A stretch of 11,832 nucleotides of DNA from Candidatus Thorarchaeota archaeon SMTZ1-45. GTDB taxonomy: Archaea; Asgardarchaeota; Thorarchaeia; Thorarchaeales; Thorarchaeaceae. Position 1 is the first letter of the stretch. Each line of letters starts with the position of its first letter. Below are positions 1-6,040 of this stretch, piece by piece. The stretch spans positions 1 to 11,832 of the forward strand of contig LRSL01000027.1 in assembly GCA_001563335.1 (NCBI GenBank), in the 5' to 3' direction. The notes under the pieces are model-generated. The model saw only the letters and a program-made list of their open reading frames with translations. It was not told the DNA's origin and ran no database searches. The position numbers were made by a program, and so were the translations under genes.

Positions 1-768
1 CGTCGTATCAAAGATAAAACAATTCTAATCTCAATAGGGATGGCAAGTAATGAAATTGGTACGATTCAGCCAATCAATGAGATTGGGAAACTAGCTGCTG
101 AGAGAGGAATAGCATTTCATACAGATGCTGTAGCAGCTGAAGGTCTCGTTCCGATTGATGTGAAAAAAGATAACATCAATCTCATGGCCCTTTCATCGAA
201 TGATATCTATGGACCCCGCGGTGTGGGAGTCATGTATATGCAAAAAAGATTCAGAGTCAACCCAATTATTATCGGAGGAGGACAAGAGAAGGGTTTACGG
301 TCTGGAAGTGAAGACATACCTGGAATTGTGGGAATGAGTATTGCAGTAGAAATATTGCAGAAGGAAATGAATACTGAAGTCAAGCGATTCCTAGGTTATC
401 GAGATGGAATGATAAAACAAATCTTAGATGAGGTGCCAGATAGTCACCTCAATGGACATCCAATTGACAGACTCGCGTCCAATGCCCATTTTAGATTTGA
501 TGGTATCGAGGGTGAGTCTATTCTGCTCTCATTCAAAGATTTAGGAATCTCGGTGTCGACAGGATCAGCATGCACATCGAAAACGCTTGAGCCATCGCAT
601 ACACTGATAGCGACTGGACTTTTGCATGAAGAAGCGCATGGTTCGCTTCAACTAACAACAGGCAGATTCAACACAGATGAAGACATTGATATAGTACTTG
701 AAGCCGTGCCAAATGTGGTTTCACGACTAAGAGAACTATCTCCAATTTACAAAACCGAAGCAGGGTGA
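1..768 (+). CDS. iscS: IscS/NifS-family cysteine desulfurase homolog, 5'-truncated by the window edge; Lys-to-Asp (A. fulgidus-like) variant
   Basis: Frame is open from base 1 (RRIKDKTILISIGMASNEIGTIQP), so ATG 40 is internal. Family motifs: NEIGTIQP, HTDAV, YGPRGVG, GGGQEKGLRSGS, STGSACTS (Cys codon 571-573), LEPSH. The PLP-lysine site reads SSND instead of SxHK. iscU follows directly. Confidence 0.95.
   Translation, partial: RRIKDKTILISIGMASNEIGTIQPINEIGKLAAERGIAFHTDAVAAEGLVPIDVKKDNINLMALSSNDIYGPRGVGVMYMQKRFRVNPIIIGGGQEKGLRSGSEDIPGIVGMSIAVEILQKEMNTEVKRFLGYRDGMIKQILDEVPDSHLNGHPIDRLASNAHFRFDGIEGESILLSFKDLGISVSTGSACTSKTLEPSHTLIATGLLHEEAHGSLQLTTGRFNTDEDIDIVLEAVPNVVSRLRELSPIYKTEAG
763..768 (+). 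promoter_or_regulatory. Shine-Dalgarno GGGTGA for iscU, overlapping the iscS stop codon
   Basis: GGGTGA, a 6-nt spacer, then ATG 775. Same geometry as GGGTGA 2078-2083 before ATG 2090. Confidence 0.7.
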
Positions 769-774
769 TTGAAA

Positions 775-1554
775 ATGAAATCAACCAAATATAGCGAAAA
801 AGTTCTGGATCACTTCCGTAATCCAAGAAATGTAGGAACTCTTGAGGGAGAGGATGTTGCAGTAGGCAAGGTTGGAAATCCAACCTGTGGAGATATTATG
901 GAGGTCTATATTCGTATTGATGGCAATGTCATCACTGATGCTAAATTCAGGACCTTTGGGTGCGGTTCAGCAATCGCCACTACTAGTATGACAACTGAGA
1001 TGGTCAAGGGAATGACGCTTGATGAGGCAATGAAGTTAACACGTCAAGATGTTGCTGATGAATTGGACGGGTTACCACCAATCAAAATGCACTGCTCAAA
1101 CCTTGCAGCTGATGCTTTACACGAAGCAATCAAAAGCTATCGTAGAGGCAAAGGTGAAGAAGTTCCTGATGAAGATGAGAAGGTAAAAGATGAGATTAAG
1201 TGTCTTGTAGGAAAAGACGAATTTCTCGATAAAGGCGTATATCTCAATGTAGAAGATAGAAATGAGTTCAAAGATCTCAGAACGCTAGTACTCTATTCAG
1301 GTGATGAATCAGTAGAAATTGCAATAGAACTTACAGAGGTCACTGATAGAGTCATTCTTCTCACCCCGGATGAAACTGTTGTAATCAATCCAGAACTTGC
1401 AGAGAGACTAGCAAGTTCAAGTGTAAAGGTCCTGTATCAATCGAAACTTCTTGAGGTACGTGGAGAGTTTGAGGTAGAGAAGGTACTGATATTAAATATT
1501 GATGAAGACGAGGAGTATGAGCTCTTCGTTGATGCAGTTGTAATCATTGAGTAG
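775..1554 (+). CDS. iscU: IscU/NifU-N Fe-S scaffold fused to a C-terminal degenerate thioredoxin-reductase NADPH-binding-like domain
   Basis: YSEKVLDHFRNPRNVG, GNPTCGD, FRTFGCGSAIA and LPPIKMHCS supply the three Cys plus Asp and His of IscU. An acidic linker follows, then about 117 aa (1201-1551) that align by eye to the TrxB NADPH domain. ATG 775 is preferred over TTG 769 from SD spacing. Tandem TAG TAG stop. Confidence 0.93.
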   Translation: MKSTKYSEKVLDHFRNPRNVGTLEGEDVAVGKVGNPTCGDIMEVYIRIDGNVITDAKFRTFGCGSAIATTSMTTEMVKGMTLDEAMKLTRQDVADELDGLPPIKMHCSNLAADALHEAIKSYRRGKGEEVPDEDEKVKDEIKCLVGKDEFLDKGVYLNVEDRNEFKDLRTLVLYSGDESVEIAIELTEVTDRVILLTPDETVVINPELAERLASSSVKVLYQSKLLEVRGEFEVEKVLILNIDEDEEYELFVDAVVIIE

Positions 1555-2788: not shown

Positions 2789-3877
2789 CTATTTACCTCT
2801 CAAGACATTTTGGATATCCTGAATGTATTCACTCCCAGGTGTTTCCCATCGGTTTGTCTTTTCACTGTAAAGATTATACGGATGAGAGTCCATACTCATC
2901 TTCGCATCATGGACTGTTTGTAAAAAGCATGATGTTAGATGAGAGCGAAGAACATCCAATCCTTTCAGAAAGCCAGACATGTCTTTGGCATTGAGAGAGA
3001 GTTGAATACCAAATCTTGTTCTTGATTCCATTGTTATGGTTGCAGGATATGGTAGTTTATAAAAAGCAGCGAGCGCTGGATTTTCTGGTCGGTCCAGCTC
3101 TATGAAACAAATGAGATTAAGTTCATTTTCTGTGGTGCAAACAGTCGATTTGTAGCCCTTGATGATCCCTTCATCTTCCAATCGATGAATCCGTTTATTC
3201 ACCAATGTTTCTGAAAGACCTAATATTTTTGCTAGTTTCTTCTGTGTTATCTCACCATCATCAAACATATGCTTCAAAATGAGGATATCATATTTGTCAA
3301 ATTCCGCAATCGACTGCACCTCTTCCAAGCGAATGTCGAATTTCTTCTTTGACCTAAGAATATCTTGAATCTGATCTTTCCACTTACTCCAATCCCAAAC
3401 CCATCCTAGTGCTGAGTTGAAATAGCTATAATCTGCAGACTTGTAATTAAAATCAGTGATGTCAAAGATGAAGAAGTCTGAAACCAGATCAGTCTTCTGC
3501 ATTTCTTCAAGAATCCGATGCGTTATCCTTGGAGAAGAGAGTGAATACAGTGAAAATGCGAGATAGCCATTGTAAGTCCCATAAGTTGGGCTGTTGAAAT
3601 ATATAGTATCAATCGCATGAAAAACATCAGGAAGGAACTTAATGCCTTTGGGGGTGGCATCCACAAGAAAAATATTCTCACCGAGACCCAATTTGCGTTC
3701 CAAGGTTAAAACACTGGTAGGACCCACAACACCAGTTTCTCTGAGCCTTTTCAAACGATATCTGACAGTCCTTGCGGGTATATTCAATAGATCACTTACT
3801 TCTTCGGTTGAAACCTTAGGACCAAGCTTATCTATGGCGCCGATAATTTCTACATCCTTCGGGTCTATTCGCGACGT
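2789..3877 (-). CDS. Tandem (two-HTH) Lrp/AsnC-like transcriptional regulator; start extended to an ACG codon
   Basis: HTH1 is IDPKDVEIIGAIDKLGPKVSTEEVSDLLNIPARTVRYRLKRLRE, largely upstream of the tracked TTG 3787 and in frame. HTH2 is DKYDILILKHMFDDGEITQKKLAKILGLSETLVNKRIHRLEDEGIIKGY. GGTGA SD at 3888-3884. Confidence 0.82.
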   Translation of the reverse strand, partial: TSRIDPKDVEIIGAIDKLGPKVSTEEVSDLLNIPARTVRYRLKRLRETGVVGPTSVLTLERKLGLGENIFLVDATPKGIKFLPDVFHAIDTIYFNSPTYGTYNGYLAFSLYSLSSPRITHRILEEMQKTDLVSDFFIFDITDFNYKSADYSYFNSALGWVWDWSKWKDQIQDILRSKKKFDIRLEEVQSIAEFDKYDILILKHMFDDGEITQKKLAKILGLSETLVNKRIHRLEDEGIIKGYKSTVCTTENELNLICFIELDRPENPALAAFYKLPYPATITMESRTRFGIQLSLNAKDMSGFLKGLDVLRSHLTSCFLQTVHDAKMSMDSHPYNLYSEKTNRWETPGSEYIQDIQNVLRGK

Positions 3878-4282: not shown

Positions 4283-4645
4283 TCAAACCTCAGAAAAGTC
4301 AGTATTGATAGAAAAGCAATTCTTCAGTACAGCATGCATGACCACACCTCGAGCATCATCCGTATCAGGGAGACCACTTATGAGCTCCTCACAGATTCGA
4401 ATTGTTGGGAGTCCAAGGGGGGCTGGAATTTCACATCCATCATCAATATCACTCATTACATCCACTTGACGGATCACTGATGGTGAAAGGCCAAAGTCAG
4501 AAATGACGTTATACATGAGTTCCAGAGCGGCATTGCAAAGAACGCATTGTTCACTAGAGTAGATAATGATGCAGCTGCATCTTCCACACTCCGTCTTCTT
4601 AGTTTCACGTCGTTGTTGTGTTGTTGTGTTGTATGCTACTGTCAT
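4283..4645 (-). CDS. Thioredoxin/glutaredoxin-fold protein
   Basis: Beta-strand IIIYSS followed by CVLC and a helix, then RQVDV and a cis-Pro-like GLPTIRI. Extra N-terminal CGRCSC. Start is ATG 4645 or TTG 4651. Confidence 0.65.
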   Translation of the reverse strand: MTVAYNTTTQQRRETKKTECGRCSCIIIYSSEQCVLCNAALELMYNVISDFGLSPSVIRQVDVMSDIDDGCEIPAPLGLPTIRICEELISGLPDTDDARGVVMHAVLKNCFSINTDFSEV

Positions 4646-4765
4646 CTCCAATCAGACGAAAATTAGCAAAATCTGAATATAACCAGTCTGAGTAAAATCA
4701 CCATGTGTAGAATGCGTCAAAACGCCTGATAGCTTGATTCTAGAGGGTTGTGCTTTTCTATTCAG

Positions 4766-4864: not shown

Positions 4865-6040
4865 TTACATTGCATCAAGGCTATACATCAAGTCATCCAA
4901 GAGATCTTCAGGGTCTTCGATTCCTATTGACAATCGTACTGTAGAGCTGGATATGTCCATCTCATTGAGGGCTCGCTCGTCAATACCATAGTGTGTCGAT
5001 AATGCGGGAATACTTGCCAAGCTCTCAACCCCACCAAGTGAGACAGCATTTAGGAAGACTTCGAGTGAGTCCACAAACTTGCTTGTGCCAGCCAAATCAG
5101 ACTCAAGTTCAATAGAGAGCATGCCTCCAAATCCGGACATCTGTTTTCGTGCAATATCATGATGCGGATGACTTGAGAGACCTGGATAGTGAACTTTTCT
5201 GATTCGCGGGTTTCGGGACAACTTTTCAGCAAGATAACTTGCATTCGAATTGTGTTTCTCCATCCTAACACCAAGAGTTTTGATACCTCGATCTAAAAGG
5301 AAGGAGGCAAATGGGTCCATAGTTCCCCCAAGAAGCTTCGCAGCTCCTCGCACATCAGCCATCAAATCTTTTGGACCCGAGATAGTCCCAGCGATTATGT
5401 CACTGTGACCACCAAGATATTTCGTTGCGCTATGCATAACTAGGTCCACACCCAATTCATGAGGTTTCTGATTGATAGGTGAACCAAAGGTGCTGTCAAT
5501 CATGCTAATGGTCCCTTTAGCACGCGCTGCGTCAGCTACTTTTTTGATATCGACAATCTTCAAGGTTGGATTGGTTGGGGTTTCGAAGAAGCAGAGTTTG
5601 TAGGCTGTTCCAGAATCTAAGAGTCGATTAGCTAGTTCATCAGTATCGACATAATCAACCTCGATGCAACTTTGTGAGAGTATCTTATTGAAGAGATGAA
5701 CAGTTCCACCATAAATCGAGTCACTAGAGAGGATTGTTTCCCCATTTTTTACTAAACCGATTATTGCTGAAGAAATGGCAGCCATCCCTGAGGCTAGAAC
5801 ATGAGTGTCTTCAGTACCTTCAAGAGCATTCATTTTTTCCTCCACATTCTTTGTAGTGGGATTGCTCCAACGTGTGTAGACATCCTTTCCTGTCTTCCCT
5901 TGCACCGAATCAAGCATCTGCTGCTGGTCTTCAAATACAAAGGTGGAAGTCTGCATTATTGGCACCACTGCTGGTCCAGACGTCTGTGTGTGTTCACCTT
6001 GAACACAAAGAGTGGATGGTTTTCTCTTTCTAGTGGTCAT
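4865..6040 (-). CDS. Cys/Met metabolism PLP-dependent enzyme (cystathionine gamma-synthase/lyase family)
   Basis: PIMQTSTF, YTRWSNPT, ASGMAAI, IYGGT, ETPTNP, HSATKYLGGHSD (PLP Lys intact), AVSLGGVESL, RLSIGIED. YGGT rather than YGCT argues against a classical methionine gamma-lyase. GGGGTG SD upstream. Confidence 0.93.
   Translation of the reverse strand: MTTRKRKPSTLCVQGEHTQTSGPAVVPIMQTSTFVFEDQQQMLDSVQGKTGKDVYTRWSNPTTKNVEEKMNALEGTEDTHVLASGMAAISSAIIGLVKNGETILSSDSIYGGTVHLFNKILSQSCIEVDYVDTDELANRLLDSGTAYKLCFFETPTNPTLKIVDIKKVADAARAKGTISMIDSTFGSPINQKPHELGVDLVMHSATKYLGGHSDIIAGTISGPKDLMADVRGAAKLLGGTMDPFASFLLDRGIKTLGVRMEKHNSNASYLAEKLSRNPRIRKVHYPGLSSHPHHDIARKQMSGFGGMLSIELESDLAGTSKFVDSLEVFLNAVSLGGVESLASIPALSTHYGIDERALNEMDISSSTVRLSIGIEDPEDLLDDLMYSLDAM

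Follow-up and report, generated by a model that had tools for sequence, protein, structure and literature searches.

A lysine-less IscS of the Archaeoglobus fulgidus type in Thorarchaeota and its linkage to tusA, dsrE-like and iscU genes

Introduction

In the cysteine desulfurase IscS of Escherichia coli, Lys206 forms the Schiff base with pyridoxal phosphate (PLP), Gln183 binds O3′ of the cofactor and Arg354 binds the carboxylate group of the substrate. IscS of Archaeoglobus fulgidus lacks desulfurase activity, which is attributed to a Lys-to-Asp change, and its cysteine ligates the [2Fe-2S] cluster bound to IscU, as stated in PMC7585200. This lysine-less protein has so far been a structural curiosity, i.e. 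an inactive donor of a cysteine ligand with a sulfur source that is not known. We have analyzed a relative of this protein encoded at the start of contig LRSL01000027.1 of Candidatus Thorarchaeota archaeon SMTZ1-45 (assembly GCA_001563335.1). The contig has 11,832 nt, and the whole of it is the window of this study (contig C27 of genome G000 in our set; G000:C27:1-11832). It begins inside an iscS gene whose product lacks the PLP lysine, which we term iscS* (protein IscS*), and this is followed directly by iscU.

PMC7585200 also describes IscS1 of Methanosarcina acetivorans (MA0808), which like IscS* lacks the PLP-binding residues. Its iscS1-iscU1 genes form a cluster with four genes whose function is unknown, IscU1 (MA0807) is listed at 24.2 kDa, i.e. 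larger than a plain IscU, and IscS1 formed inclusion bodies; our comparison with this system is by the description in that paper alone. There are no occurrences of either TusA or thioredoxin reductase in the same text. The archaeal MIS (minimal iron-sulfur system, MisS/MisU) resembles IscS*-IscU in having just the two genes of the iscS-iscU core, with neither chaperones nor carriers nor ferredoxin. In the accessible part of a 2026 review (PMC13066941) MIS is called the least studied iron-sulfur (Fe-S) system; it is credited with the capacity to use sulfide, and its electron donors are given as unknown. MisS is described there as a cysteine desulfurase, unlike the lysine-less IscS*, and that part mentions neither a tusA/dsrE linkage of the lysine-less clade nor a reductase-type domain in MisU.

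A further comparison is with the E. coli IscS-TusA-TusBCD relay (3lvj/3lvk), which has in common with the genes analyzed here an IscS fold, TusA and a DsrE/TusD-type protein with a conserved carrier cysteine. E. coli IscS makes a persulfide using PLP and the sulfur passes outward to tRNA, whereas IscS* is predicted not to form a persulfide. Any relay involving IscS* must therefore run toward IscS*/IscU, or be fed from elsewhere. Unlike the E. coli relay, the IscS, TusA and DsrE families are here found in one operon together with iscU.

The active site of IscS*

Frame +1 of the window runs uninterrupted from base 1 up to a stop codon at 766-768. This 3′ part of iscS* (1-768, + strand; 255 codons plus stop) encodes 255 residues with the class-V aminotransferase fold (Pfam Aminotran_5, E = 3e-33; best PDB match 4eb5). 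The contig start cuts off 134 codons at the 5′ end, and the missing part is not present elsewhere in G000, an assembly of 3.54 Mb in 119 contigs with a completeness of 87.7%. However, a protein of 389 residues from another assembly (P0002) is 100% identical to the 255 residues of the window over its residues 135-389, and we have used its N-terminal half in place of the missing part. The closest proteins are listed under the names Thorarchaeota, Sifarchaeia or Promethearchaeota, all of them Asgard archaea.

An initial annotation made from the letters of the window had proposed that this IscS has lost the PLP lysine and other substrate-site residues, yet keeps the loop cysteine. Each of the changes is confirmed by reading the DNA and by alignment with E. 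coli IscS (all codons on the + strand). SSND replaces SxHK, with Asn (199-201) and Asp (GAT, 202-204, the Asp of LSSND) at the His205-Lys206 positions. DAVAA, starting at 124, replaces DAxQ, placing Ala (133-135) at the position of Gln183. The Gln of HGSLQLT (CAA, 649-651) aligns with Arg354, and GSACTS is intact, with the loop cysteine (TGC, 571-573) aligning with Cys328. The alignment adds a Ser (307-309) in place of Thr243. The equivalents of His104, Asn155, Asp180, Ser203 and Cys328 are retained, as is the GAT phosphate loop. Given the loss of the Schiff-base lysine together with three further PLP or substrate residues, IscS* should therefore not take up sulfur from cysteine.

Within the best 150 cluster representatives matching P0002 the lysine is kept in 135, and nearly all of those also keep Gln183 (131) and Arg354 (134). 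The substitutions in IscS* are therefore not a matter of chance. Of 80 loci in species-representative genomes, 26 lack Lys206; every one of these also lacks Gln183 and Arg354, and all have the cysteine. The loop cysteine (C325 of the clade alignment) is invariant in 29 aligned lysine-less clade members, while the residue at position 206 varies (D, N, E, A, S or P). The initial annotation had argued that several coordinated changes speak against sequencing error, and this is upheld by the recurrence of the residue state HNDASNDSCQ in 16 of the 80 loci and by a median dN/dS of 0.045 (range 0.023-0.156; 83 usable pairs from 47 orthologous genes). The full set comprised 1081 pairs, of which 987 were saturated and 11 had dS <0.1; L015, L018, L098 and L101 were omitted from it, as the tblastn stretch ran through a stop. 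IscS* is under strong purifying selection.

IscS* is to be grouped with the A. fulgidus protein. The best PDB match of full-length P0002 is 4eb5 (441.9 bits, against 334.8 bits for the best canonical desulfurase), and the part in the window matches A. fulgidus IscS (annotated ‘cysteine desulfurase 2’; 4eb5, 4eb7 and 4hvk) with E = 1e-82. IscS* is 51% identical (196/381) to a G260 protein whose match to 4eb5_A covers the full 382 residues (838.7 bits). At the corresponding columns 4eb5 has SSND, DATAS and HGTLLLT. All four substitutions are thus common to the two proteins, i.e. Asn-Asp at 205-206, Ala at 183 and a residue other than Arg at 354, although this last is Leu in A. fulgidus and Gln in the window. 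Ser at 243 and the loop cysteine are also shared; 4r5f is a variant of the A. fulgidus protein with Lys at the Asp position. The initial annotation had cited the A. fulgidus protein as a precedent for the Lys-to-Asp change, the inactivity and the role of the cysteine as ligand; the first agrees with 4eb5, and the other two are stated in PMC7585200, as noted above. In sequence IscS* is the published A. fulgidus kind of protein, met here in a new lineage, and it is very probably a non-desulfurase of that type.

Could another lysine take over the role of Lys206? The initial annotation had raised a compensating lysine in the missing N-terminal part. The sole candidate that is both frequent in the clade and never found in canonical rows is Lys12 (SAKP, where canonical sequences have ATTP), which occurs in 22 of 31 clade rows and in none of 186 canonical rows. 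Another lysine follows the Cys loop (Lys194 of the window fragment, after GSACTS), and is present in 29 of 31 clade rows and 20 of 186 canonical rows. A. fulgidus IscS carries both, and since it is reported to be inactive these lysines are poor candidates for rescue. By analogy with that protein we consider a compensating lysine unlikely.

The initial annotation had also expected annotation pipelines to label such proteins as active, and this is only partly so. Some relatives are annotated ‘cysteine desulfurase’ or ‘cysteine desulfurase NifS’, but others are named ‘cysteine desulfurase family protein’, and the NCBIfam equivalog cut-offs are not reached (NifS, 454.2 against 530.75; IscS, 401.4 against 643.2). 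Nor does IscS* reach the cut-off of any further desulfurase model within the 25 listed NCBIfam matches. Lysine-less IscS proteins should not carry the name cysteine desulfurase.

Phylogeny of the lysine-less IscS proteins

The 26 lysine-less loci of the species-representative genomes come from Thorarchaeota/Promethearchaeota, Bathyarchaeota, Thermoplasmata, WOR-3, Stahlbacteria, one ‘Actinomycetes’ metagenome-assembled genome (MAG) and further bacteria; the WOR-3 locus L023 sits on a complete chromosome. We constructed the tree of lysine-less IscS that the initial annotation had suggested, and the window groups within one supported lysine-less clade. With FastTree (231 rows) 32 lysine-less rows form one clade with a support of 98, and the window lies in a 22-row subclade with a support of 100. 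With IQ-TREE in quick mode (82 rows) all 22 lysine-less rows group together (SH-aLRT 97), and the seven Thorarchaeota rows are sister to five bacterial rows with a support of 100. This sister grouping implies transfer between domains, the direction of which is not given by the tree. P0205 (288 residues) was omitted from the trees, and P0160 from the smaller ones. The 4eb5 sequence is not itself a row, and it is a paralogue from the same genome (L146) that falls inside the clade.

A single origin of all lysine-less IscS proteins was rejected, as FastTree and IQ-TREE each need five changes. A second lysine-less clade, comprising L075 and five representatives, is separate in the trees. A third type is found in Thorarchaeia (L126, L127 and L135, in G024, G010 and G007), in which Lys206 is replaced by Val, Arg or His and His104 by Val or Thr, and Arg354 and the cysteine are kept. 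It adjoins a plain IscU and a helix-turn-helix gene. Neither tusA nor dsrE was found near loci of the L075 type or of the third type, the latter being covered to within 8 kb (L170, L171 and L173).

Linkage to tusA and dsrE-like genes

In the bacterial and Thorarchaeota relatives of the window, the open reading frame (ORF) preceding iscS* belongs to the DsrE/DsrF family, and the ORF before that to TusA (Pfam). Using tblastn we found that iscS* is directly preceded, on its own strand, by TusA and/or DsrE-like genes in all 25 clade loci of species-representative genomes, and in all 30 loci of the window’s class, same-genus genomes among them. The gap between the nearest carrier gene and iscS* is 1-110 nt. 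By contrast, neither gene was present in the ~3-kb flanks of 54 lysine-containing loci. We extended the comparison to a second phylum, where 56 of 301 genomes had a match with E ≤ 1e-115, giving 34 loci. Here the linkage is found in 28 of 28 lysine-less loci, compared with none of six that contain the lysine. Overall the genes are linked in 83/83 clade loci, against 0/60 lysine-containing loci.

When the four trait columns were masked, one branch of the tree separated off 49 rows (SH-aLRT 82), and these include all 44 linked rows. The remaining five rows are the window and four representatives that have no context, and all 49 are lysine-less.

At the locus of the protein identical to 4eb5 a DsrE-like gene lies directly upstream (12 nt) and iscU directly downstream. 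There are two differences from the window and its close relatives. No tusA was found within ~3 kb upstream, whereas close relatives of the window have both tusA and dsrE, and the IscU is plain with 156 residues, while that of the window has 259 residues with an extra domain.

Both putative carriers retain their cysteine. The CPxP cysteine of TusA is invariant in 29 sequences, and Cys78 of the DsrE-like protein in 27. The best PDB matches of the TusA profile are to E. coli TusA, including 3lvj_C that was crystallized with IscS (E = 4e-17), and that of the DsrE-like profile is 3mc3.

The same arrangement of tusA-dsrE-iscS*-iscU, with iscU in the short fused form described below, is present in WOR-3, Stahlbacteria and other bacterial MAGs (L018, L019, L023, L028 and L030-L032), and is 68-72% identical to the Thorarchaeota module. 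The whole module must have moved between domains. The bacterial copies are flanked by rubrerythrin, ferritin and thioredoxin-like genes.

A reductase-derived domain in IscU

The iscU gene of the window (775-1554, + strand; 259 codons; NifU_N, E = 7e-49) lies directly downstream of iscS*. We place its start at the conserved ATG at 775, where all orthologues begin MKST; a longer reading of the ORF starts at TTG 769. The product consists of the scaffold (~775-1150), a linker (~1150-1190) and a C-terminal domain of 120 residues (1192-1551). Cys38, Asp40, Cys63, His106 and Cys107 of the scaffold are invariant in 19 sequences.

The C-terminal domain has no significant Pfam match, the best being Pyr_redox with E = 0.0015, below the cut-off. 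However, it matches positions 118-232 (of 300) of TIGR01292 with E = 4e-12, its profile matches residues 131-247 of 2zbw in the PDB with E = 7e-14, and it matches Pyr_redox clusters in the Atlas (0.95). It is thus homologous to the NAD(P)H-binding domain that is inserted in thioredoxin-reductase-type flavoenzymes, i.e. thioredoxin reductase itself and the thioredoxin-reductase-like ferredoxin-NADP reductases such as 2zbw. Unlike those enzymes, IscU contains this central domain only. The flavin adenine dinucleotide (FAD) domain is absent, the glycine motif reads YSGDES with only one glycine kept, and GxGxxG/A, HRR and CxxC are all missing, as is any conserved cysteine. The domain therefore probably has no reductase activity by itself, and in this organism it looks catalytically dead.

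The domain is encoded downstream of iscS* at 18 of 20 loci (L013-L033 without L027), the remaining two, L016 and L031, ending inside iscU. Five loci of the second phylum also have it. The Bathyarchaeota loci lack it, as do all 54 loci with the lysine. The 17 rows having the domain form one clade, with a support of 100. These short fusions are annotated simply as NifU or IscU scaffold.

In some lineages the partner is a complete enzyme. L158:167-1498 (− strand, genome G351) encodes a protein of 443 residues in which IscU is fused to a complete Pyr_redox_2 flavoprotein (291 positions), and the gene is located downstream of tusA, dsrE and iscS*. The C-terminal domain of the window IscU aligns with residues 269-373 of this fusion. 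Long fusions of IscU with a flavoprotein are common under the names ANME-2, Methanoperedens and Methanosarcinales, and are annotated either as NifU scaffold or as thioredoxin reductase. In two Thermoplasmata loci (L040:4204-4818 and L044:4215-4790) a gene for a flavoprotein of the FMN_red family with a compact Cys motif comes directly after iscS*, in the place of iscU.

Desulfurases and Fe-S assembly genes in the class

G000 contains one NifU_N gene, and no SUFBD_core match was found in this genome at its completeness of 87.7%. That SufB is absent from the organism is not a claim that can be made, given this completeness and the presence of a SUFBD_core match in 10 of 27 same-genus genomes. 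Across the class, 35 of 87 genomes have a SUFBD_core match, among them 15 of the 24 high-quality ones; in the other 52, being incomplete genomes, the lack of a match does not show absence. A match to P0002 with E ≤ 1e-60 is present in 78 of the 87 genomes, and in all 24 of high quality. The result bears on Asgard biology, as 42 of the 52 (incomplete) genomes with no SufB-type match carry IscS* (hand count).

G000 has a stand-alone SufS-like gene (G000:C24:24488-25756, − strand; L002:1465-2730) in which HK, DAQ, HC and Arg are all present. Its product scores 417 bits against a SufS subfamily cut-off of 475, and there are no adjoining suf genes. It is possibly the sole functional cysteine desulfurase of G000. 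A second pseudo-desulfurase, also SufS-like (G000:C69:106369-107628, − strand; L003:1465-2721; 419 residues), has lost the PLP lysine, the DAxQ glutamine, the histidine preceding the catalytic Cys and the Arg that binds the carboxylate, but the Cys is kept. The losses follow the pattern seen in IscS*, here in a member of the other class of desulfurases. In three further genomes (L131, L132 and L133 in G037, G029 and G052) there are proteins of 743-750 residues in which the C-terminal part is a canonical desulfurase of the IscS/NifS type.

Discussion

That a lysine-less IscS exists was already known. What goes beyond the initial annotation is the linkage to tusA and dsrE, and the reductase-type domain in IscU. 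Our literature search found no description of either, the founding paper on MIS, the original A. fulgidus papers and supplements being outside its reach. The strict linkage and the recurrence of a reductase-type partner for IscU now make the question of the sulfur source assayable.

We consider it probable, though some way from assured, that the lysine-less IscS* acts within a tusA-dsrE-iscS*-iscU module, with its loop cysteine receiving sulfur and/or ligating the cluster. TusA and the DsrE-like protein would carry sulfane sulfur on their conserved cysteines and deliver it to the loop cysteine of IscS*; the case for this individual step is evenly balanced. The loop cysteine would then hand the sulfur to IscU, and/or stay in place as fourth ligand to the [2Fe-2S] cluster as it forms. 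The reductase-derived partner of IscU may mark a need for electrons in the reduction of S0 to sulfide, the partner being a full flavoprotein in some lineages, a neighboring flavin mononucleotide (FMN) reductase in others, and apparently a degenerate remnant in this organism. Since tusA, the dsrE-like gene and the reductase-like domain of IscU travel with the clade, they point to a relay of sulfur rather than to a purely structural role.

Several observations weigh against this interpretation. The window begins inside iscS and so holds neither tusA nor dsrE, and no orthologue of either was found elsewhere in G000, where there is one stand-alone DsrE-like gene of 40% identity (C4:26-388). For G000 the linkage is thus extrapolated from relatives of the same genus. 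Many of the loci are near-copies, or are the same genomes reached twice, so that the counts overstate their independence. In the second phylum the selection of loci as top matches of a lysine-less query left a small lysine-containing control, and masking of the trait columns leaves the clade branch with only moderate support (82). Nor does gene order tell in which direction sulfur flows, and in E. coli it moves the opposite way, from IscS to TusA. Finally, tusA-dsrE-iscS* occurs without an adjacent iscU in Thermoplasmata (L039, L040 and L044) and in one genus of Thorarchaeia (L120, L121 and L122, in G060, G071 and G068). In the latter iscS* is 76-77% identical to that of the window, and is followed by a convergent gene. 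As iscU is not adjacent in these lineages, the module may have a purpose other than Fe-S assembly.

How do other explanations compare? The initial annotation had regarded the protein as a cluster co-ligand or chaperone, and in its strict form this would make IscS* a structural partner of IscU only, with free sulfide as the source of sulfur and with tusA and dsrE serving another pathway. The core of the proposal stands, in that IscS* appears to be a non-desulfurase and that ligation by the cysteine has the precedent of the A. fulgidus protein as described in PMC7585200. Moreover, the only experimental data for the clade, on the A. fulgidus complex, show ligation rather than transfer as far as that text goes, MIS can according to PMC13066941 use sulfide, and the host is an Asgard archaeon of the anaerobic-sediment type. 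But the proposal is incomplete, taking no account of tusA, the dsrE-like gene or the reductase-like domain of IscU. It leaves unexplained a linkage found in every clade locus and in none of those with the lysine, and also the persistence of the module where iscU is not adjacent. We therefore regard a purely structural role as unlikely, though it deserves to be taken seriously. [quoted passage not shown] The E. coli relay feeds tRNA thiolation, and the TusA of the module is most like E. coli TusA. Yet IscU is adjacent in 22 of the 25 clade loci of species-representative genomes and in each of the 28 lysine-less loci from the second phylum, the residues with which it holds the cluster do not vary, and no genes for tRNA thiolation were seen in the few flanks scanned. 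Such a hub seems to us improbable.

It is very improbable that IscS* is still a cysteine desulfurase, using either non-covalent PLP or another lysine such as Lys12 or Lys194 of the window fragment. The retention of the His104, Asn155, Asp180, Ser203 and GAT-loop equivalents would be consistent with this, as would the enrichment of both lysines in the clade (22/31 against 0/186, and 29/31 against 20/186). However, four catalytic or substrate residues have been lost together, position 206 is as variable as expected of a relaxed site, and the A. fulgidus protein has both lysines and is reported to be inactive (PMC7585200). The truncation of the gene in the window could suggest an artefact or a decaying pseudogene, but this has already been refuted and can be given virtually no weight. 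The truncation falls at the contig end, the identical full-length P0002 exists, the median dN/dS is 0.045, and 73 of the 87 class genomes (G000 included) have a match of at least 68% identity (hand count).

Returning to the sulfur relay, a wider proposal can be made tentatively, and we consider it less likely than not. Lysine-less IscS, TusA, the DsrE-like protein and IscU with its fused or neighboring flavoprotein might together constitute a cysteine-independent route by which sulfane sulfur passes via carrier cysteines onto IscU. The route would be spread in anaerobic archaea (Thorarchaeia, Bathyarchaeia, Thermoplasmata and the phylum of the 4eb5-type protein), would have crossed into WOR-3/Stahlbacteria, and could be the main Fe-S machine in many Thorarchaeia that have no SufB-type match.

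Other genes of the contig

Beyond iscU the window carries a gene for a GNAT acetyltransferase (1547-2068, + strand; Pfam), which overlaps the iscU stop, and then a gene of 228 codons (2090-2776, + strand) for which no family match was found in Pfam or NCBIfam. By tblastn both are conserved in this order downstream of iscU in 11 Thorarchaeota loci, and the GNAT gene was not found after iscU in the bacterial loci. A divergent winged-helix regulator (2789-3787, − strand) lies beyond the 228-codon gene, and is found in seven of those 11 loci.

About 3.3 kb downstream of iscU there is a gene (4865-6040, − strand) for a PLP enzyme of Cys/Met metabolism, of the methionine γ-lyase/cystathionine γ-synthase family, with 391 residues and the lysine present. 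Enzymes of this family can release sulfide. Within ±3 kb of the loci of the lysine-less relatives no such gene was found, and there were weak matches in only two lysine-containing loci. Lastly, a Cys-rich protein of 122 residues without a family match is encoded at 4283-4651 (− strand), and by eye its CxxC part resembles the C-terminal end of a 590-residue sensor-kinase-like ORF (G000:C4:449-2221).

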